Positions 13,808-26,854 of a DNA stretch of 64,000 nucleotides are shown one piece after another. The DNA is taken from the NCBI GenBank assembly GCA_051278005.1, contig JBNMQK010000004.1:2945-66944 (forward strand), in the 5' to 3' direction. The position numbers and the translations under genes are program-made. Every line of letters starts with the position of its first letter. The first letter of the stretch is position 1. Source of the stretch: Oleispira sp. GTDB lineage: Bacteria > Pseudomonadota > Gammaproteobacteria > Pseudomonadales > Oceanobacteraceae. The notes under the pieces are model-generated. The model was not told the origin of the DNA. It saw only the letters and a program-made list of their open reading frames with translations, and searched no databases.

Positions 13808-14016
13808 AAGGTTCTCCAAATTTGATAATATAAAATCATGATAAAGGATCAATAATTGAGACGTATTATACCCTTTGAGGCCGTTTCTTGCTCATTAGGT
13901 TTTAGGGTTGACTCGTGAGTGTATCTTAGAGGGTTTTTGCAGACTTATAGGGATTTGATAGGGTCATTACCTTATGTGATAGGGAAGCTTGAGCGACCGG
14001 TACTTTACGTGTTTAT

Positions 14017-14763
14017 TTAAGCCTTGAACTCGTTAACGATCTTATTTAAGTTTTGCGCTTGCTCTGCAAGATGAGAAGACGCTTGAGAGGTCTTTGTAGC
14101 TCCATCAACTGTATCTTCAGAGATAGCATTGATTTTATAATGTTGACACTAACTTCTTCGGAAACAGCACTTTGTTGCACCGCTGCACTAGCAACCTGAC
14201 TGTTCATGTTATTAATAGTCTCGACGTTGGTCATGACATTAATCAAGAAATTTTCGGTAGCTTAAGATTGGTCTACAACCTTGACTGCTTTTTTTCGGTT
14301 ACTTTTCATGGCATTAACCGCTTGTTCTGTCCGCTCAATAACGGAGTGAATTTCGCTGGTTGATTCTTCGGTATGAGCCGCTAATGATTGAACTTCATCG
14401 GCGACTACTGCAAATCCTCGACCTTGTTCGCTAGCTCTTGCGGCTCCAATGGCTGCGTTTAAGGCTAATAAATTGGTTTGTTCTGCAATGCCTTTAATAA
14501 CCTGCGAGGCGTTACCAATTAATGCACTGTCTTTGGCTAAATTCTTAATGACTTCTTGGGCATGTTCTACGTCAGCCACTAATGCGGAGATAGAAGCAAT
14601 ATTTTCCGCCATTATCTTTTGTGATTGATGGGTGCATTCTTGAACTTCGGTTGCTTGTTGGGATTGTATGGAAAAAAATAAGTATACAGAGAGCCCCAAA
14701 ATCCCAATGTAAGGCAATGGCCATAATTTTGTATTTGATGGACAGTTGGAGAAGAAACTTCAT
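14017..14763 (-). pseudogene. degraded methyl-accepting chemotaxis protein
   Basis: [13 protein letters not shown] start, frameshift into a TM, direct jump to signalling hairpin [31 protein letters not shown], internal stop at 14262, more frameshifts, end AEQAQNLNKIVNEFKA*. Confidence 0.85.
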
Positions 14764-14974
14764 TGCTATTCTGTGCTTAAAGTAAGGGTTTGCATGCATG
14801 TTAGCTTATTAATAAATAGTTCAAGAGTGGCAAAACGGCAAGAGTATGAGGCGAGAAATCTAAAAAACGATAACAATTTAATGATCTAAAAATAATAGTT
14901 CTAGTTGAGTAATGATAAAGCATGAACTTGGCCCATTATGATAATGAGCCAAGTGTTATGGATTAATCCGTTTC

Positions 14975-16627
14975 TTATAGTAAATCTTGCATCTTTTTAT
15001 AGGCTTGTACGAGGCCGCTGGTCGAGCTGTCAAAGTCTGCACTACTGGCTCGTCCCTCTAACGCAGATAAGACGTTATTACCCATGTCTTTACCGAGTTC
15101 CACGCCCCATTGATCAAATGAGTTTACGCCCCAAATCATGCCTTGAGCGGCCACCTTGTGTTCGTAGAGCGCAATTAAGGCGCCAACGGAATGAGGCGTT
15201 GATTTCGGGAAGTAAAGAGTATTACTGGGGCGGTTTCCAGGAATGACTTTTTGTGCGGCTAATGCGATTGCTTCACCTTCACTCATGCCTGCGGCTAAGC
15301 ATTCATCAATGGCTTGTTGCTCAGTTTTACCGGTTAATAACGCTTGGCTTTGTGACAGTGCGTTTGACACAAGCATGGCGTGGAAATTATCAATGGGGTT
15401 ATGACTGCGCATCGGCATAATAAAATCGCTGGGCGAAAAGTGGGTGCCTTGGTGCAGTAGCTGGTGATATGCATGCTGACCGTTAGAACCCACTCCTCCC
15501 CATATAATCGGCCCAGTATGATAATCTACTTTGCATCCATCAATGCCAATGGATTTGCCGTTACTTTCCATATCCAATTGTTGTAAATGAGCAGGTAAGC
15601 CTCGCAGATAATGGTCGTATGGCAAAATAGCTTGGGAGTTAATACCAAAAAAGTTGACATACCAAACGCCCAGCAATGCCATGATAACGGGCATGTTTTT
15701 TTCCATCGGTGCTGTGCGAAAGTGTTCATCCATTTCATGAGCACCGCGCAGCATTTCACGAAAATTATCGATGCCTATCGCCAGCGCCAGTGGCAAGCCA
15801 ATGGCTGACCAAAGCGAGTAACGTCCACCGACCCAATCCCACATAGGGAATATGTTTTCTTCGGCGATACCAAACTCAACCGCTTTTTCTACGTTGGCGG
15901 AAACGGCGGCAAAGTGTTTCGGTAAATCATCCAATTCGCCGCCATTATCGAGAAACCATTGACGACACGCGAGTGCATTTTTTAGCGTTTCTTGAGTGCC
16001 AAAAGATTTTGACTGAACGATGAATAGTGTACTTTCAGGATTTAGATGCTTCAAAATCTCGGTAATGTGTGAGCCATCGATGTTCGCGAGGTAGTGCACA
16101 TTAATTTGGTTATCGTTGTAGGGCTTTAACGCACTAGAGGCCAATTTTGGCCCTAAAAATGAGCCGCCAATACCGATAGAGACAACGTCGGTAAAAGGTT
16201 TGTTGGAATAGCCGCGCCAGTGCTTACGACGGACTTTCCAACAGAATTCTTCCATGCGATTCATGGTATCGCGTACTTCTGGCATGACATCGACACCGTT
16301 AACCATTACGGGGCGATCACTGAAGTTTCTCAATGCGGTGTGAAGTGCTGGGCGATGTTCGCTGCGGTTAACTAGCTCTCCTTCAAACAGGGCTTTGATT
16401 TGACCAGGCAGGTCTCGCTTCTTGGCTAACTGAGTGAGCAGGTCCATGGTTTCGGTGGTGATGCGGTTTTTAGAATAATCTAAGGTCAGGCCAGCGGCTT
16501 CTATATTGAAGCGGTCAAAACGCTGGTTATCTTGCTTGAACCAATCCGCCATATGTTGCGGGTGGATGTCGGTGAAGTGATGTTGTAATTGTTGCCAAAT
16601 GTCGAGACGTTGCAGCGGTGTGCTCAT
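14975..16627 (-). CDS. pgi: glucose-6-phosphate isomerase
   Basis: GIGGS, SKSFGTQET, DWVGGRYSLWS, DQWGVELGK. Confidence 0.98.
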   Translation of the reverse strand: MSTPLQRLDIWQQLQHHFTDIHPQHMADWFKQDNQRFDRFNIEAAGLTLDYSKNRITTETMDLLTQLAKKRDLPGQIKALFEGELVNRSEHRPALHTALRNFSDRPVMVNGVDVMPEVRDTMNRMEEFCWKVRRKHWRGYSNKPFTDVVSIGIGGSFLGPKLASSALKPYNDNQINVHYLANIDGSHITEILKHLNPESTLFIVQSKSFGTQETLKNALACRQWFLDNGGELDDLPKHFAAVSANVEKAVEFGIAEENIFPMWDWVGGRYSLWSAIGLPLALAIGIDNFREMLRGAHEMDEHFRTAPMEKNMPVIMALLGVWYVNFFGINSQAILPYDHYLRGLPAHLQQLDMESNGKSIGIDGCKVDYHTGPIIWGGVGSNGQHAYHQLLHQGTHFSPSDFIMPMRSHNPIDNFHAMLVSNALSQSQALLTGKTEQQAIDECLAAGMSEGEAIALAAQKVIPGNRPSNTLYFPKSTPHSVGALIALYEHKVAAQGMIWGVNSFDQWGVELGKDMGNNVLSALEGRASSADFDSSTSGLVQAYKKMQDLL

Positions 16628-19614: not shown

Positions 19615-21009
19615 TTAGGACTCAGGGTTACGAGAACGTTGTCTATCATTCGGCGTGCCGCGATTGGTACGACGTGGACGACGCTTTTTAGTATGACGTT
19701 CTTCTGGCTGTCGATTTTCGGCCACTTCTTTATATTCATCAGTTTCTTGATACTGGGTCCACCAGTTACCTAAACCTCTAAGGTCTTCGCCACATTGTTC
19801 ACGTAGAAGAACAAAATCATACGCTGCACGGAAACGATTACTTTCAGCGGCTTCAGCGGCTTTTTTGCCTCTTTTACGTTCTAATCGTGACTGCATGTCC
19901 CAAATTTCTTTCATGGGAATTGTAAAGCGCTTAGGAATAGACGTGCGCTTTAACTGCTGTTCAATCACCCGGCTCGCGGCTTTATGCAATGACGGCTGAG
20001 GTGGAATGCCTTGCTCTAAAAAATCTGCTTGGACCCTTTGTAGAGACGGCCAAAGCAGGGCGGCAAAAAAGTAATAAGGTGTGACGGATTTACCTGATTG
20101 AATCCGATCATCCGTATTAATCATGGTTTGCTCAACAAAACGAGCCGCAAATTCGTCGTGAGCGACACACTGCTCAGTCAGCGGGAACAGCTCACCAAAT
20201 AACTTATATTCACGTAATAGACGATACGTTACCAATGCATTGCCGGATAAGAATAGTTTTAACACTTCTTCGAATAAGCGCGGAGCAGGGATCTGCTCCA
20301 TTAACGGAGCCATCATTTCAATGGGGGCTTTTGTCTCTTGTTCGATTTCAAAATCTAATTTGCCGGCAAAGCGAATAGCACGCAGCATACGCACGGGATC
20401 TTCGCGGTAACGCGTTTCAGGATCTCCCATTAAACGAATGAGTTTATCTTGAGCATCTTGATAGCCACCAGCATAAGAAAGTACCGTGAAATCATCGACA
20501 GCGTAGTACATCGCATTAATCGTGAAGTCACGACGCATCGCATCATCATCAATAGTGCCATATACGTTGTCGCGTAAAATCATGCCGCTATCGCCCGTTT
20601 GGGCTTGATTACTGTTGTGTTCTTCTTTTGGTGAAGTACGAAAAGTTGCCACTTCAATGACTTCGCGCCCAAATAATACGTGCACGAGTTTAAAACGACG
20701 ACCAATTAAGCGAGAGTTACGGAACAGTTGGTTGACTTGTTCTGGGGTAGCGTTTGTTGCAACATCAAAGTCTTTGGGGTGCGCGCCCAGCATAGAGTCA
20801 CGCACGCAACCGCCCACAAGATAAGCTTGATAGCCCGCGTTATTCAGGCGATACAAAACTTTTAGTGCATTTTCACTTAGCTGACGACGACTAATGCCGT
20901 GCTCTTTGCGCTGCAGAATTTGCGGTTTGATCTCTTTATCCGCGTTTTTAGCTTTGCGGCCCCCCATTAAAGAAGGGAAAAAGCGCGCTACAGTATTAAC
21001 TATGGACAT
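19615..21009 (-). CDS. pcnB: poly(A) polymerase I
   Basis: VGGCVRD, KDFDVAT, PAP-specific LIGRRFKLVHV, RRDFTINA, EDPVRMLRA, Arg-rich tail. Confidence 0.97.
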   Translation of the reverse strand: MSIVNTVARFFPSLMGGRKAKNADKEIKPQILQRKEHGISRRQLSENALKVLYRLNNAGYQAYLVGGCVRDSMLGAHPKDFDVATNATPEQVNQLFRNSRLIGRRFKLVHVLFGREVIEVATFRTSPKEEHNSNQAQTGDSGMILRDNVYGTIDDDAMRRDFTINAMYYAVDDFTVLSYAGGYQDAQDKLIRLMGDPETRYREDPVRMLRAIRFAGKLDFEIEQETKAPIEMMAPLMEQIPAPRLFEEVLKLFLSGNALVTYRLLREYKLFGELFPLTEQCVAHDEFAARFVEQTMINTDDRIQSGKSVTPYYFFAALLWPSLQRVQADFLEQGIPPQPSLHKAASRVIEQQLKRTSIPKRFTIPMKEIWDMQSRLERKRGKKAAEAAESNRFRAAYDFVLLREQCGEDLRGLGNWWTQYQETDEYKEVAENRQPEERHTKKRRPRRTNRGTPNDRQRSRNPES

Positions 21010-21109
21010 CTATGGTTGCCTGGATTTTCGCGATTGCAGGGGGAAGTTACTTTAAAGAAAAACTTGCGCCTGTCGATTATGATTATTGTTCAATATTAGT
21101 TAGTTAACG

Positions 21110-21137
21110 AGTTTACATGATGGGTTGGCGCTTTCAA
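21110..21137 (-). promoter_or_regulatory. candidate sigma70 promoter of pcnB
   Basis: Minus strand TTGAAA-16 bp-TAAACT about 100 nt upstream of the pcnB ATG. Confidence 0.4.
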
Positions 21138-21174
21138 AGCATCTGAAGCTATATAAAGGCTGGGGATAAATAAA

Positions 21175-21503
21175 AGGGGGATAATAAAGGAAGTAAAGCT
21201 CAGGTTTGGTGGTTATTATTTTTATTGTTACCAAACCGAGATAAGTAAACTAGCTGTTTTGAATACGCAGGAACTAACAGCTCCGTTATTATTCTTATTC
21301 TTATGAGTGTGCTAAGTAACGCTCACTTCGCACTCAAAACAACTAATTTTTCATTTTTCCACGCCTCTTTATTATTCTTATTATGAGGCCACCTCTTCAT
21401 GGGTGTTTTGATATTCGTAAACGCGATTTTATTTTTATTATTGCGTTTAGTTTCAATCTTACGTTTTAGCGTTGTTATTTTTATAAGTGCCTTAACGTTA
21501 TAT
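21175..21503 (-). ncRNA. CrcZ/CrcY-like Hfq-Crc sequestering sRNA, copy 2 (about 320 nt; ends approximate)
   Basis: No ORF; own sigma54 promoter; five A-rich AANAANAA tracts (21472-84, 21427-42, 21368-84, 21286-304, 21213-29), at least three closed by stems; final hairpin followed by pyrimidine-rich tail. Confidence 0.8.
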
Positions 21504-21513
21504 TCTAATATAT

Positions 21514-21530
21514 AGCTATAATCGTGCCAA
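21514..21530 (-). promoter_or_regulatory. sigma54 (-24/-12) promoter of sRNA copy 2
   Basis: TTGGCACGATTATAGCT, GG-N10-GC. Confidence 0.85.
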
Positions 21531-21548
21531 CATTATAATTCCCTTTTA

Positions 21549-21561
21549 AATCAATTGCTTA
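21549..21561. promoter_or_regulatory. IHF site
   Basis: AATCAATTGCTTA matches WATCAANNNNTTR. Confidence 0.75.
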
Positions 21562-21589
21562 TGTGTTTTATCTCACAGAGAAACCAATG

Positions 21590-21652
21590 TGTTACACCAA
21601 AGTGTTACTTGAAGTAATGTTAAAACGTAATAAAGGTAACGATTATGTAACG
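21590..21652. promoter_or_regulatory. CbrB-type upstream activator sites
   Basis: TGTTAC at 21590 and 21603; GTAACG at 21636 and 21647. Confidence 0.7.
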
Positions 21653-21940
21653 CTGCGTAAGTTTTTACTTAAAATGAGCCACTCTTGCATTTATTGACGG
21701 ATACGGTGGTTAATGGGTAGTTAAATAAGGGGGCATATTGGTAATCTGTAAGTTTATTGGCGTTTGCTTGGCCCATAAATAAACAAAAAAAGAAGTTATT
21801 GAGATATTTGAACATTGAATGAATGTTAAGAGCTTGATTTTGACGTTTTAGAAAAATGACTTGAGTGCACTGTGGCAATCTACTTATTGAGTTTGAGGTA
21901 ATACGAATTGGGAGCAGATATTAAAAATAGGAAGGATAGG

Positions 21941-21990
21941 TAAATAAAGGACTCATTGCTTTACACTGCATTTTGGAGTGTAAAGCAATG
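21941..21990 (-). terminator. terminator hairpin of sRNA copy 1
   Basis: Perfect 14-bp stem CATTGCTTTACACT/AGTGTAAAGCAATG followed by CCUUUAUUUA. Confidence 0.7.
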
Positions 21991-22123
21991 GGTACTCAGT
22001 GAGCCCGGGTTTTATTATTATTTAGAGCTCTTAATTAGCGTTATTATTCTTATTATCGCCAATCTTTTATCATACTGCCCTAATTTTGTTTTTATTGTCT
22101 GGGTAGTATTGTTGTTCTTAGTT
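21941..22123 (-). ncRNA. crcZ: CrcZ-like sRNA, copy 1 (about 180 nt; ends approximate)
   Basis: Canonical position immediately downstream of cbrB; sigma54 promoter; starts AACUAAGAACAACAAUACUACCCAGACAAUAAAAACAAAA; four A-rich tracts; closing 14-bp hairpin. Confidence 0.82.
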
Positions 22124-22133
22124 CTTTTTCTTT

Positions 22134-22150
22134 AGCAGGGAACGTGCCAA
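22134..22150 (-). promoter_or_regulatory. sigma54 (-24/-12) promoter of sRNA copy 1
   Basis: TTGGCACGTTCCCTGCT, GG-N10-GC. Confidence 0.88.
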
Positions 22151-22168
22151 TTTTTAAAAACTCTTTAT

Positions 22169-22181
22169 AATCAATGTCTTA
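22169..22181. promoter_or_regulatory. IHF site
   Basis: AATCAATGTCTTA matches WATCAANNNNTTR; same offset from -24 as in copy 2. Confidence 0.75.
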
Positions 22182-22201
22182 TAAAGTGCAATAGAAAAAT
22201 T

Positions 22202-22229
22202 GTAACAAACTGGCACTAATTTTTGTTAC
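22202..22229. promoter_or_regulatory. CbrB-type upstream activator sites
   Basis: GTAACA at 22202 and TGTTAC at 22224. Confidence 0.7.
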
Positions 22230-22306
22230 CTAGAGAGCAGGTTTTTGGGTCTAGTTGATACCTTGGTGGCGGATTATGACCGAGAATAGCGACCCCAGTC
22301 TATGAC

Positions 22307-23695
22307 TTAACTAGTCTTTGTCGCTTTTTTGCGTGGAATGCCCAGTCGCTGTCGGCGTTCCCATAAACATTTACGTGAGACACCTAATTTACGGGCTAAG
22401 TCGGTTTCGTTCATGCCATCTTCATTTTCAAGTACGAAATGCATAAAGTAATCGTCCAAAGAGAGATCACCTTGGCTTGTTTTATGGTTGCTTGTTTTCG
22501 GATTGAGAAGATTTTCTTTTAAAGTTTGCGGTACGTACTGGTCAGGGGAGGCATCAATAGCCATGTTTTCTGGCGTGATTTCATCACCATCAGCCAAAAT
22601 TACTGCACGCTCAATAGCATTTTCTAGTTCGCGAACATTCCCCGGCCATCGGTACTGTGAAATCGCTTGGCGAGATGCGTTAGTTAATAGCATTGTGCCG
22701 CGGTTCATTTTTTCACAACTGCGCTGAAGCATGAACTCTGCCAGCTCCATTACGTCTTGTCCTCTTGCACGCAACGGCGGTAGATGGAGTTCTAATACAT
22801 TGAGTCGATAATAGAGATCTTCACGGAATTCAGCTTTTGAGGCTAATTCTTTTAAGTTTCTGTGAGTGGCCGCAATTAAACGAACGTCGACCTTTCGACT
22901 TTGTACCGAGCCAACACGTCGAATTTCACCTTCTTGCAATACGCGCAATAAACGCGCTTGTGCTTCGAGTGGTAATTCGCCAATTTCGTCTAAAAATAAG
23001 GTGCCGCCATCAGCCGCTTCGACCAAGCCTAAGCGTAAAGTCGCAGCGCCTGTGAACGCCCCTTTTTCGTGGCCAAATAACTCAGATTCAATCAATGACT
23101 CAGGAATGGCCGCGCAGTTAACCGAAATCATGGGTGCATCTTTGCGGCGGCTTTGTGTATGCAGGGCGCGGGCGACTAACTCCTTACCGGTTCCTGACTC
23201 ACCTTGAATCAACACGGTTGCGTCGGTCGGAGCCACCTTGCTGATTTTTGAAAATAAATTATTCATCAGCGAGCTACTGCCAATAATACCGGTAACAGGG
23301 TATTCTTTGGCAACTTCATCTTGCAATACTTCGTTACTTCGGCTGAGGTTGCGTTGTTTAAGAATACGTTCAACCGTTAATAGCATTTCTTCATGATCGA
23401 AGGGCTTGGCAATGTAATCGACGGCCCCCAGTTTCATGGCATCCACTGCGGATCTTAAGCTGGCATAACTGGTCATGATGAGCACGGGAGTCTCACCTGC
23501 AAGCTCAATTAACTCGGTACCGTTGCCGCCAGGTAAGCGGAGGTCGCTGATAATCATGTCGTAATCGCTGAAGGTCAGCTCTTTTGCAATATGCAGAGAG
23601 TCTGCTTCATGAATTTCATGCCCTTGGCGTTCTAATAAGCGTTTTACTGCTTGGCGAATAATTTTCTCGTCTTCAACGACTAAAATACGGCTCAT
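22307..23695 (-). CDS. cbrB: sigma54-dependent response regulator CbrB
   Basis: Receiver + AAA+ (GESGTGKE, GAFTGA) + C-terminal LSLDDYF.HFVLE...ETDLARKLGVSRKCLWERRQRLGIPR typical of CbrB; synteny with pcnB. Confidence 0.93.
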   Translation of the reverse strand: MSRILVVEDEKIIRQAVKRLLERQGHEIHEADSLHIAKELTFSDYDMIISDLRLPGGNGTELIELAGETPVLIMTSYASLRSAVDAMKLGAVDYIAKPFDHEEMLLTVERILKQRNLSRSNEVLQDEVAKEYPVTGIIGSSSLMNNLFSKISKVAPTDATVLIQGESGTGKELVARALHTQSRRKDAPMISVNCAAIPESLIESELFGHEKGAFTGAATLRLGLVEAADGGTLFLDEIGELPLEAQARLLRVLQEGEIRRVGSVQSRKVDVRLIAATHRNLKELASKAEFREDLYYRLNVLELHLPPLRARGQDVMELAEFMLQRSCEKMNRGTMLLTNASRQAISQYRWPGNVRELENAIERAVILADGDEITPENMAIDASPDQYVPQTLKENLLNPKTSNHKTSQGDLSLDDYFMHFVLENEDGMNETDLARKLGVSRKCLWERRQRLGIPRKKATKTS

Positions 23696-26688
23696 TCGGA
23701 TTTATCCTCAAGCAAGTTATTCTGCGCTTTGGGTAAGCGTAGGGTGACACAGGTACCAGGACTGTTTTGTTGGAGACTTGTATCTGAGGCGCTTGGTAAG
23801 TCTGCGCCTTGCAGTAAGCCTAGTATGTGGCTGGGCACTGGGCTGTCGATGCTAATGTGCCCATAATGTTCTTCGATAATACTATAAACTAAGGCCAGCC
23901 CAAGCCCTGTTCCTTTACCGACTTCTTTAGTTGTAAAAAAAGGGTCGAAAATATGATCGAGTTTATCTTCAGCTATCCCGCTGCCTTGGTCAACCACATA
24001 CACGATGACTTGGTATGGGTCCACGTGCCCAAAAATGTGGATACTGCTGAAATCAGGGCTGGCATCCCTGGCATTGCTTAATAGATTGATAAACACTTGT
24101 ACTAAGCGTTGAGAATCACCGACCACTTGCCAGCGGGCGTCGCATTCATTGATGTACTCAATATCCCGACCTTGGTTACTGAGGAGTAATAACTGAATTG
24201 CTTCATCGATACAGGTACCGATGTTGACGGTCAGATGCTCTGTTGTTAAGTGTCCAGAATGCGAGAAGTTTATTAACGATTGTACGATGCGGGTAACCCG
24301 CCTCGTTTGCTCCTGAATTTGATCGGCCATTTCTAGAATTTCTTTATTATCAGTTTCATAACGCATGCTTTGTGCTAAACAATCGATACCGGTAATGGGG
24401 TTGCCAATTTCATGAGCCACTCCCGCGGCTAAGCGACCAATGGAGGCTAGCCGTTCACTGTGTATAAGTTCTTCTTCTAACATCTGGGTTTCAGTTTGAT
24501 CTTCAACCAAAATAACCGTACCGCCCGGTTGACTGCCGGCCGCTTTAATAATGGATTTGTGCAAGTTGTACCAGTGTGGTCGTCCTAGCTGTTCAATGCG
24601 CTTTTTATGCTGGTGGATGGCATCATCACATAAAAACTCATTCAGCATGCAGCCCCAAGGTTCTGCGGCGGCTGTTAGACGAGAACCGGTGACGTCACTC
24701 GGAGTGATTCCTGTGAGATCCTGCATGGCGGCATTCCACATAAGCACTTCTCCTTCATCGGATACTGAGCATACTCCGATAGGAAGACGTTCAAGCGTTT
24801 GGCGGTGATAGCGGCGTAAGTTATCCAGCTCACCCGCTAGGCCGCTTAAGCGATCATGAAAACCTTCAATGCGCTGTTCAATTTGATAGATATCTTCGCT
24901 TAATACCGCGTTCGCTTGAAAGGGCAGGTTGCGATTGATAATATCGTGCGCCACGGTAGGGCCCATTAAACCTGATAGGTTGGCCTCTAATCGCGTGCGT
25001 AAACGGCGTAATGCGTAAGGGCGATCCTCATAAGAGGGTAGGCTCAAATCGACCAGTGCCTGATGAACTTCTCTCTCTGCTACATAACGTCCTAATGGCT
25101 TGCTGAGTGAAATAATAATGTCATTAGAATTACCGGCGATAAGAGGCTTGCGGCTTGGGCGCGATACGGTATCAACAGAGCAGGCTTCTGCGGCTGCTCT
25201 TTCAGACTCTTTTTGAGTGGTTGTTAAGCTAACGATAATAAATAGGACTAAATTAACGCAAAAGCTTCCCATCGCCGCAACATGCCAATTATTCATGTCG
25301 GTTGCCGGTAACGAAATCGAGTACTGCCAGCCTAGCGTTAAGTGGGAAAGTGGCAGCAATAGCGTGTAGGCCCAAGCGATAATGCCGATACTGAGGCCCG
25401 CAATAAGTCCCCAGCGGTTTGCCTTAGGCCAGTATAAAACGCCCAGTACACCCGGTAAAAATTGTATAGCCGCCACAAAGGCAAGTATGCCGAGTAAGGT
25501 GATTTGAATGTCAGCGCCAATAATGCGGTAAAAACCGTAAGCAGCCACCAGTATTGCACCAATCAGGCATCGTCTAACCCATAATAACCATTGGTAAAAA
25601 TCTTGTTTTGGGCCAGGTTTATAGCTAGGTAATACAATATGGTTTAAAAACATGGCGGCTGTCGCCAGTGTCGTCACAATGATGACCCCAGATGCCGCGG
25701 CCAAGCCCCCTACAAAAACCATGATGACTAATACTTCAGAGTTGAGTGCCATGCCAATGCCTAGGGCATAAAACTCAGGGGGCACTTCCAGTTCTAAATA
25801 AATACCTGCCCATAAAATAGGGGGTACAGAAAGGCTCATGAGTAATAAAAATAGAGGAAGCCCCCAGGTGGCTGTGCGCAGTGCTTTTGGATTGATGTTC
25901 TCCGTAAACGTGACGTGAAACATATGCGGGGCGACAACGGCCGCTGCAAAGAAAACCAATAGTAGAGTTCGCCATGGGCCTTCTTGTAAATTAGTTTGGC
26001 GGCTAATTAGCTGTTCTTGATTGGCAGCTAGCCAGCTCTGCATATCCCCTGAACCATCAAAAACAAAGAATAATGCGGTGATGCCTAATATGGTAATAGC
26101 GACCAGTTTTAATACGGACTCAAAGGCTAAAGCAAAAACCAATCCTTCGTGCTTTTCTCGCGGAGAAACATGGCGCGCGCCAAATAAAATAGCGAAAACG
26201 ACCATGGTGATACAAAAGCCAAAGGCTAAAGTGGTCGAGGGAAGGTCGGCGTTCAGTAAGTACATACTTTCGGCGACCGCCGCTATCTGCAAAGTGAGCA
26301 GCGGTAATGCCACTGCCAAAGTAAAAAGCGTCACCATGACGCCGGCTAAGCGGCTGCGATAACGAAAAGCGAATAAGTCTGCGAGTGAACTGAGCTGATA
26401 AGTACGGGTGATATGGAGTATGGGCTTAAGCAGAATAGGGGAAAGAATAAATGCCCCGCTGATCCCCAGATAATAGGCTAAAAAGCCATAGCCGTATTGA
26501 TCGGCCATTGCTACAGAGCCATAAAATGCCCACGCACTGGCATAGACACCTAAAGATAAAACGTAAACGATGGGGTGGCGAACCCAATGCTTAGGAATCC
26601 AACCTCGATCAACGATGTACGCAGCTAAAAATAAGAAAAAAAGATAGCCAAAGACGATGAGACTCAATTGAGTAAGACTAAAGCTCAT
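23692..26688 (-). CDS. cbrA: sensor kinase CbrA (SLC5-like transporter, STAC, PAS, HisKA, HATPase)
   Basis: VYVLSLGVYASAWAFYGS multi-TM N-terminus, AHEIGNP, FFTTK, GTGLGL; 4-bp overlap with cbrB. Confidence 0.93.
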   Translation of the reverse strand: MSFSLTQLSLIVFGYLFFLFLAAYIVDRGWIPKHWVRHPIVYVLSLGVYASAWAFYGSVAMADQYGYGFLAYYLGISGAFILSPILLKPILHITRTYQLSSLADLFAFRYRSRLAGVMVTLFTLAVALPLLTLQIAAVAESMYLLNADLPSTTLAFGFCITMVVFAILFGARHVSPREKHEGLVFALAFESVLKLVAITILGITALFFVFDGSGDMQSWLAANQEQLISRQTNLQEGPWRTLLLVFFAAAVVAPHMFHVTFTENINPKALRTATWGLPLFLLLMSLSVPPILWAGIYLELEVPPEFYALGIGMALNSEVLVIMVFVGGLAAASGVIIVTTLATAAMFLNHIVLPSYKPGPKQDFYQWLLWVRRCLIGAILVAAYGFYRIIGADIQITLLGILAFVAAIQFLPGVLGVLYWPKANRWGLIAGLSIGIIAWAYTLLLPLSHLTLGWQYSISLPATDMNNWHVAAMGSFCVNLVLFIIVSLTTTQKESERAAAEACSVDTVSRPSRKPLIAGNSNDIIISLSKPLGRYVAEREVHQALVDLSLPSYEDRPYALRRLRTRLEANLSGLMGPTVAHDIINRNLPFQANAVLSEDIYQIEQRIEGFHDRLSGLAGELDNLRRYHRQTLERLPIGVCSVSDEGEVLMWNAAMQDLTGITPSDVTGSRLTAAAEPWGCMLNEFLCDDAIHQHKKRIEQLGRPHWYNLHKSIIKAAGSQPGGTVILVEDQTETQMLEEELIHSERLASIGRLAAGVAHEIGNPITGIDCLAQSMRYETDNKEILEMADQIQEQTRRVTRIVQSLINFSHSGHLTTEHLTVNIGTCIDEAIQLLLLSNQGRDIEYINECDARWQVVGDSQRLVQVFINLLSNARDASPDFSSIHIFGHVDPYQVIVYVVDQGSGIAEDKLDHIFDPFFTTKEVGKGTGLGLALVYSIIEEHYGHISIDSPVPSHILGLLQGADLPSASDTSLQQNSPGTCVTLRLPKAQNNLLEDKSE

Positions 26689-26854
26689 CGGGGCCTCGTT
26701 TATATTCTACCCATATATAAATCGCGATTAATAGAAACCAAAATGCAAAAGGATGATACCAAGCACCATTAGGTGCTAGCCACCAATCAATGATAACGGG
26801 TGAAAAAATATATAACCCGACTACCAATAGCAGCGAGACTCGATAATCGTACAT
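26678..26854 (-). CDS. cbrX: CbrX-like 58-aa membrane peptide overlapping the cbrA start
   Basis: Below ORF-track cutoff: MYDYRVSLLLVVGLYIFSPVIIDWWLAPNGAWYHPFAFWFLLIAIYIWVEYKRGPDEL*; 11-bp overlap with cbrA. Confidence 0.85.
   Translation of the reverse strand: MYDYRVSLLLVVGLYIFSPVIIDWWLAPNGAWYHPFAFWFLLIAIYIWVEYKRGPDEL

Follow-up and report, generated by a model that had tools for sequence, protein, structure and literature searches.

Two tandem CrcZ-type RNA genes, probable Hfq/Crc decoys, between cbrB and pcnB in Oleispira

The cbrB-pcnB gap

The 64-kb window of Oleispira DNA analysed here (the whole stretch, in whose numbering all positions are given) carries on its minus strand the gene order dksA, gluQ, cbrX, cbrA, cbrB, a gap of 1297 nt, pcnB, folK and what we take, from their sequences, to be the pan genes. 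An earlier note, made from the sequence alone, had proposed that this gap holds two tandem minus-strand genes resembling the Hfq/Crc decoy CrcZ, each composed of activator sites, a site for integration host factor (IHF), a sigma54 promoter, a body with four or five A-rich tracts and a terminal hairpin. Both units were found where the note had placed them, they recur in 14/14 loci of the genus, and the two sigma54 boxes predict the same transcription starts (+1) that it had given. The gap is laid out as follows:

21010-22306, minus strand for both RNA units: cbrB-pcnB gap, 1297 nt
22202..22229, minus strand: CbrB-type subsites of unit 1, GTAACA (22229-22224) and TGTTAC (22207-22202), after the hexamer consensus of PMC6296734
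22169..22181, minus strand: IHF-type site of unit 1, a consensus match 32 nt before the sigma54 box
22134..22149, minus strand: sigma54 -24/-12 box of unit 1, motif TGGCAC-N7-GC, predicted +1 at 22123, 14/14 genus loci
21941..22123, minus strand: short RNA, about 183 nt, 4 tracts (fold z -4.97, covariation, RNA-library contigs)
22119-22109, 22096-22086, 22054-22041 and 22022-22012, minus strand: tracts of the short RNA
21992-21952 and 21950-21942, minus strand: long 3' stem of the short RNA, bearing AAAGCAAT, and its U-rich tail; the rest of the structure is three A-loop hairpins
21660..21940, no strand: variable spacer between the units
21590..21652, minus strand: CbrB-type subsites of unit 2 (motif), CGTTAC at 21652 and 21641, GTAACA at 21608 and 21595
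21549..21561, minus strand: IHF-type site of unit 2, a consensus match 32 nt before the sigma54 box
21514..21529, minus strand: sigma54 -24/-12 box of unit 2, motif TGGCAC-N7-GC, predicted +1 at 21503, 14/14 genus loci
21175..21503, minus strand: long RNA, about 320-330 nt, 5 tracts (fold z -5.60, covariation, weak Rfam match, exact-match contigs)
21482-21472, 21442-21429, 21382-21369, 21302-21286 and 21229-21213, minus strand: tracts of the long RNA
21348-21329/21267-21248, minus strand: central stem of the long RNA, around tract 4
21240-21199 and 21198-21183, minus strand: last A-loop hairpin of the long RNA and its pyrimidine tail

For comparison, 61 genomes were searched with CbrB and the stretch downstream of it was read in 57 of them (36 family members and 21 from other families), leaving out three other-family genomes with no CbrB-level match and one incomplete genome of the genus. 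The criterion for a unit was a sigma54 box with two or more tracts after it. A contig scan with CbrB yielded only the control loci L069-L073, the remaining matches being mostly unrelated activators. The assembly that contains the window comprises 1.62 Mb and is 52% complete.

Promoters of the two units

Every promoter element expected from the earlier note was located as a motif in both units, the IHF-type sites being called with what we take to be the IHF consensus. Two sigma54 boxes in the gap were reproduced by 0/300 local dinucleotide shuffles and, among the 269 sigma54-like boxes of the assembly, those of units 1 and 2 rank first and second for the tracts that lie downstream. The subsites of unit 2 fall at -123/-79, a spacing like that of the Pseudomonas crcZ promoter PcrcZ (-124/-104/-82 in the control loci L070 and L071). 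Across 79 units of the family, GTAAC occurs 49 times at -78 to -81 from the box, and a looser IHF-like motif keeps one fixed position in 59. Over 32 arrays, first units carry a mean of 1.8 CbrB subsites versus 3.9 in last units.

A similar promoter was seen apart from the locus in genus g6, where G019 (L183, C1:2155541 onward) and about 15 other genomes have a conserved sigma54 promoter with CbrB-type subsites and, downstream, an A-rich tract. This arrangement runs, in G019, straight into an open reading frame (ORF) resembling, by eye, an AraC-type regulator. As a further RNA unit the pattern match was discarded, being an mRNA leader in the one genome read (G019), and the element is likely to be a CbrB-activated, Hfq/Crc-repressed mRNA.

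Tracts, folds and display in loops

The gap contains nine long tracts, compared with a mean of 0.78 and a maximum of 4 in 300 local dinucleotide shuffles, and none on the opposite strand. Their distribution between the bodies, four and five AANAANAA tracts that stay unpaired in the consensus structures, is the one anticipated, as are the three positions of a 14-mer (21286, 21369 and 22041), which are its only occurrences in the assembly. The divergence in size between the two units also held. The gap had been described as lacking a credible ORF, and in this regard a 69-codon ORF of the spacer is intact in 2 genomes, broken by a stop codon in one more and was not found in the remaining 11 genus loci, while no small ORF is common to the RNA bodies across the 14 loci. 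A protein-coding reading of the units was therefore rejected, and across these loci they are non-coding.

Both RNAs fold better than all of their shuffles. Structures were drawn from alignments of 14 genus genomes and, with covariation scored on the same alignments of kindred genomes, the counts lean high: the short RNA has 7 pairs with two-sided changes (5/500 shuffles as high) and 23 cells (0/500), and the long RNA 15 pairs and 42 cells (0/500). Pairing reaches 96-98% versus 30-42% in slid controls, and the flanking stems change in step while the tracts stay invariant. Folding and covariation across relatives, which the note had recommended as a check, came out in favour of both RNAs. As to the ends, the predicted terminal hairpins are present, that of unit 2 with a 19-nt A-rich loop, but neither passes as a canonical intrinsic terminator; the span of the long unit down to 21175 is approximate, its 3' end lying at about 21183-21175 with a pyrimidine tail that stops near 21183.

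A regular feature of these RNAs is the size of the loop in which the tracts are held. Of 319 family tracts, 85% lie inside a hairpin loop; loops of 16-20 nt account for 62% of the tracts and loops of exactly 18 nt, the commonest size, for 24%. The corresponding figures in a swapped-flank control are 59%, 23% and 4%; when the own genus is left out, the shares of family tracts in the two loop sizes are 58% and 23%. In the window, 6 of the 8 tracts scored sit in loops of 17-20 nt. Moreover, the flanks pair at -4 kcal/mol or better in 91% of tracts versus 53% in Pseudomonas-group controls. Such a display of Hfq sites would not be wholly new, because the Rfam CrcZ consensus itself has loops of 22 and 18 nt, yet it appears more regular here. 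An 18-nt A-rich stretch fills the six distal pockets of Hfq, and CrcZ binds one hexamer per A-rich stretch (PMC4063720, PMC9890229).

Conservation, arrays and two classes of unit

The genomes compared are kin, so the counts that follow overstate independence and support the case less than their size suggests: the 36 family genomes read hold one unit in 4, two in 23, three in 7 and four in 2, that is, 2-4 units in 32/36. The 21 genomes of other families hold none in 5, one in 13, two in 2 and three in 1. The single unit called in G015 is doubtful. The promoter-plus-tract pattern matched 81/86 family genomes, versus 6 matches in all for a reversed control, and a model built on the short RNA matched 50/86, in 8/11 genera. 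Compared with the 13 other genus loci, the spacer is 35-86% identical (40-55% in 10 of them), the short RNA 71-89% and the long RNA 77-94%.

With the tracts masked, the best match of a first unit is the first unit of another genus in 26/32 arrays and that of a last unit the last unit of another genus in 27/32, and units 1 and 2 of the own genome match each other at background score. By this comparison, the short and the long unit represent two distinct classes of old origin. Their numbers vary among genera, as the short class is multiplied in genus g4, the long class is doubled in genus g7, and genus g5 has only long-like units, one pair of them nearly identical, with 0/13 matches to the short-RNA model. 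The automatic stem finder gave no result on many units of g4, g5 and g10.

Other arrays were observed along the way. Units 3 and 4 of L039 (G026) are nearly identical long units 537 nt apart; they reflect either a tandem duplication of very recent date or a repeat in the assembly. L057, L054 and L060 (families f4, f16 and f10) have tandem arrays of 3, 2 and 2 units, with short bodies in f4 and f10, which suggests repeated independent amplification. In L045 (G021) there is a long 9-nt tandem repeat past the unit's terminator, and no pcnB within 5 kb.

Gene neighbourhood and partner proteins

The genes that frame the gap are the following:

26678..26854, minus strand: cbrX, gene of a 58-aa peptide upstream of cbrA (PDB 10ed chain X, 58/58 aa, E 5.7e-18)
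23692..26688, minus strand: cbrA, sensor kinase, 998 aa (PDB 10ed_A, residues 1-592, E 9.5e-208; PAS, HisKA and HATPase domains)
22307..23695, minus strand: cbrB, sigma54 activator, 462 aa (sequence identity to Pseudomonas-group activators and Oleispira proteins)
19615..21009, minus strand: pcnB, poly(A) polymerase, downstream neighbour (TIGR01942, 523.7 bits, above cut-off)

CbrB is 63-64% identical to the activators of three Pseudomonas-group control loci (L070-L072), which adjoin CrcZ genes of full Rfam score, and 91-96% identical to named Oleispira proteins, with other CbrB paralogues below about 50%. In the three controls the RNA, one unit each, lies directly after cbrX-cbrA-cbrB and before pcnB. 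Judged by gene order and protein identity, the locus is a true cbrX-cbrA-cbrB locus, and the two units lie directly downstream of orthologous cbrA-cbrB as CrcZ does. Between the long unit and pcnB, positions 21010-21180 of the window are 82-94% identical in 6/13 genus relatives and carry two sigma70-like sites (21137 and 21076) and one more AANAANAA at 21090; this conserved stretch is probably the pcnB promoter and leader.

Both protein partners are encoded in the same genome. The hfq gene is present (G000:C7, L182), as it is in 57/61 genomes. The crc gene, whose best PDB match is P. aeruginosa Crc (E 1e-73), sits between what we take, from their sequences, to be rph and pyrE, and Crc-level matches were obtained in 54/61 genomes. 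The protein keeps K135, R138, K139, R140 and R141, among the residues whose RNA contacts are described in PMC6422490. An RpoN box was also found in the genome, and a motif search of this half-complete assembly gave no IHF genes.

Relation to CrcZ and other known RNAs

The earlier note had expected standard annotation to miss these genes, and at the gathering threshold Rfam indeed reports nothing in the window. The CrcZ cut-off of 95 bits is reached by 0/86 family genomes (best 37 bits), compared with 234-350 bits in the Pseudomonas-group controls. The best sub-threshold CrcZ matches in the family mostly overlap short units, and in the window only the long unit scores. Matches to mir-1 and mir-305 at E-value level in the window were set aside as hairpin artefacts.

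A closer relation is suggested by short stem motifs. AAAG[CT]AAT occurs in first units in 20/32 arrays, in last units in 0/32 and in Pseudomonas-group controls in 3/3, versus 1.5% of shuffles, and a looser upstream motif in 21/32, 0/32 and 3/3, counts that carry less weight for the kinship with CrcZ than they might, since the motifs were chosen after the alignments had been inspected and 14/32 arrays come from one genus. AAAG[CT]AAT lies in the 3' stem of the short unit and in the central stem of Pseudomonas CrcZ. From this we infer that the short unit is CrcZ minus the inside of the central stem and the 3' part, and we take the long unit to be a diverged paralogue retaining the overall layout.

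With the CrcZ of P. aeruginosa, P. putida and Azotobacter the two units share their place after cbrX-cbrA-cbrB, the sigma54 box, CbrB and IHF-type sites, several A-rich tracts and a genome encoding Hfq and Crc; the long unit shares in addition a long stem around one tract, and the short one the motifs CTGA/ATT..TTT..AAAGCAAT. They differ in being two tandem genes instead of the single one of L070-L072, in measuring about 183 and 320 nt instead of about 390-400 nt, in falling far below the Rfam cut-off, in lacking a canonical terminator and in having tract flanks that pair more often. The host belongs to the Oceanospirillaceae, outside the family named in PMC8871633. A second A-rich paralogue driven by CbrB and RpoN, which brings redundancy and possibly different responses, is known as CrcY in P. 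putida, P. stutzeri and A. vinelandii and as CrcX in P. syringae (PMC8871633, PMC9730152). Unlike CrcY, the paralogue found here is adjacent and of another size class, whereas P. putida crcY is the 3' UTR of mvaB, away from crcZ (PMC5113210). In G013, a complete genome of the genus, pattern and model searches found no further CrcY-like copy other than a single 28-bit match to the short-RNA model, and that model gave no distant copy in G000 (52% complete) or G004.

Another kind of sponge is represented by CsrB, RsmY and RsmZ, which expose many GGA motifs, the motif of CsrA/RsmA, in hairpin loops. The two RNAs hold 0 and 2 GGA triplets and have no Rfam match of this type.

According to reviews, descriptions of cbrA-cbrB-crcZ are limited to Pseudomonas and Azotobacter (PMC8871633) and those of Crc to Pseudomonas and related groups (PMC10832556); a further paper reports Crc in Acinetobacter (PMC8312277). 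A Thalassolituus proteome mentions the CbrA protein and, in the parts available, no RNA (PMC11290528), and those of PMC7318663 on Oleispira have no mention of Crc, Hfq or small RNA (sRNA). No description of such RNAs in Oleispira or its family was found in the literature, supplements aside.

Presence in RNA libraries

Four seawater metatranscriptomes (X1-X4) hold parts of the window as contigs only, so that presence is shown without strand, ends or level; gaps in this coverage, such as 21594-21664, are uninformative. Two exact-match contigs of X1 cover the long RNA (21124-21481), and contigs of relatives in X2 and X3 extend over both RNA bodies; several in X1 and X2 are confined to the body of the long unit. 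The short RNA is represented by contigs 21912-22100 and 22007-22100 from two studies, and no exact-match X1 contig covers most of its body. Upstream contig ends lie mostly at 21480-21491 and at 22100, 12-23 nt inside the predicted starts, and the stop at 22100 in two studies is a weak hint only, one of them having an adapter end. X4 gave one contig only, upstream of pcnB.

Elsewhere in the window, 1141 nt beside pgi (13839-14981) are skipped in a relative's contig from X3. The skipped stretch holds a partial ORF (14262-14717) that is presumably of the chemotaxis-receptor family, and it may be a degraded or strain-specific insert.

Candidate targets

A rough ORF call gave 1161 leaders in the own assembly. 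Among 20 candidate leaders (15/20 with a Pfam match) are those of the alkane monooxygenase AlkB, a flavin monooxygenase, an acyl-CoA dehydrogenase, two AraC regulators, a MalT-type regulator, transporters and pilus proteins. The alkB gene (G000:C22:14978-16159, L169; PDB 8sbb, E 4.9e-116) has an AAN-repeat tract directly before its ribosome site. Of the 22 alkB-family loci in the genus, 20 have a start call, and AANAANAA is present in the leaders of 13 of these 20, compared with 81/1161 leaders genome-wide (7%). These figures are suggestive only, and alkB is regarded as a candidate Hfq/Crc target.

A two-decoy reading and its alternatives

Altogether, the orthology of the locus, the promoter motifs, the conserved covarying units, the size of the loops, the presence of Hfq, Crc and RpoN and the RNA-library contigs lead us to consider it probable that the gap contains two conserved structured CrcZ-type RNA genes, likely driven by CbrB, IHF and sigma54 under carbon limitation and likely to act as Hfq/Crc decoys. 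By analogy with CrcZ, discrete transcripts, independent promoter activity and Hfq/Crc binding are likely for both RNAs. Following the Pseudomonas model of the circuit (PMC10832556, PMC4063720, PMC5113210), carbon limitation would activate CbrA/CbrB, phosphorylated CbrB, with IHF bending the DNA, would open both sigma54 promoters, and both RNAs would rise. Each AAN-repeat tract, open in a loop of about 18 nt, would then wrap one Hfq distal face and recruit Crc, with up to 4 + 5 sites, so that Hfq/Crc would be titrated away from mRNAs that carry this motif next to the ribosome site, alkB being a candidate, and translational repression would be lifted.

Besides the limits already attached to the motif and genome counts, several observations weigh against this interpretation. 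The long unit scores only 17.6 bits (E 0.035) against the Rfam CrcZ model RF01675, where the cut-off is 95, and the short-RNA model gives Pseudomonas CrcZ only 15-18 bits. A canonical intrinsic terminator was found in 0/14 short and 0/14 long genus units. On the protein side, Hfq position 25, a distal-face position, is Phe instead of the Tyr of P. aeruginosa (Phe also in 8/8 relatives read, L149-L156), and Crc differs at E142 (Asp), K155, R196 and R230. Among the contigs, one of X1 covers the spacer (21726-21909), another of X1 joins the end of cbrB to 22097, one of X2 reaches 21540, across promoter 2, and one of X3 joins the long unit to pcnB unbroken (20366-21491); DNA may be present in the RNA libraries. 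As to targets, the 11-nt tract is only modestly enriched (18/1161 leaders versus 8.8 in shuffles, maximum 14), the 8-nt motif in leaders lacks significance (71 versus a shuffle mean of 53.9, maximum 83), and A-rich leaders often carry the motif anyway (58/259, 22%).

Some of these data could be read otherwise. It is unlikely, in our view, that the long unit serves chiefly as a 5' leader of pcnB, driven by sigma54 and controlled by Hfq/Crc, through which CbrB tunes poly(A) polymerase, leaving only the short unit as a small RNA. The X3 contig, unbroken from 21491 into pcnB, the lack of a canonical terminator in all 14 long units and the 82-94% conservation of the 164 nt before pcnB in 6/13 relatives point that way, but a contig over two genes is no proof of a single transcript, several X1 and X2 contigs are confined to the RNA body, and the distance from the five tracts down to the pcnB start, 200-470 nt, is too large for them to block the ribosome site of that gene. 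Moreover, in the other genera of the family a canonical GC hairpin with a U run closes 14/18 last units, and partial read-through, which may occur from the long unit into pcnB, fits the two-decoy reading as well. A somewhat fainter chance is given to the long unit being the only working decoy, the short one being a remnant with weak expression, or else no more than a structured 3' end of cbrB mRNA. The fewer CbrB subsites of first units, the scant exact-match coverage of the short body in X1 and the absence of short-RNA-model matches in genus g5 would agree with this, yet the sigma54 box, IHF-type site and tracts of the short unit are kept in 14/14 genus loci while the spacer drifts, its stems covary, its model finds matches in 8/11 genera and short units have multiplied in g4.

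We regard it as highly improbable that the RNAs titrate another protein, of the CsrA/RsmA type or another A-rich binder, or base-pair with mRNAs. Such a role could draw on the low sequence score to CrcZ and on the invariant long stem in each RNA, which could have its own partner; on the other hand, GGA triplets are nearly missing, the single-stranded parts that do not vary consist of AAN repeats, poor as a seed for pairing, and the locus, the promoter type and Crc all fit the CrcZ circuit.

Within the two-decoy reading, a division of labour between the genes is more speculative. In P. putida one gene is the source of both a basal pool, by read-through, and an induced pool; by analogy, these two jobs may be split between two genes here. 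The short unit could be a basal, read-through buffer, given its place directly after cbrB, its smaller number of CbrB subsites and the CrcZ motifs retained in it, and the long unit could provide inducible capacity, because its enhancer is fuller. That CrcZ split early, in this family of marine hydrocarbon degraders, into a short cbrB-coupled buffer with the CrcZ stem retained and a long, strongly CbrB-inducible decoy, both with hexamer-sized loops, the make-up of the array (1-4 units, with gains and losses) being a rheostat on alkB-type genes, is a tentative proposal which we hold to be possible, though short of an even chance.

Implications

The mechanism itself is of a known kind and the advance moderate. 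The natural series of 1-4 units, together with Hfq sites in 18-nt loops, offers compact material on the coexistence of CrcZ paralogues and on decoy loading. The circuit would extend carbon-choice control beyond Pseudomonas and Azotobacter, to bacteria thought to have almost no carbon choice. Oleispira is dominant in cold oil spills and uses few substrates (PMC7318663), and a complete, duplicated circuit in this genus suggests a translational brake on alkane genes, which could shape the speed of its response to oil.
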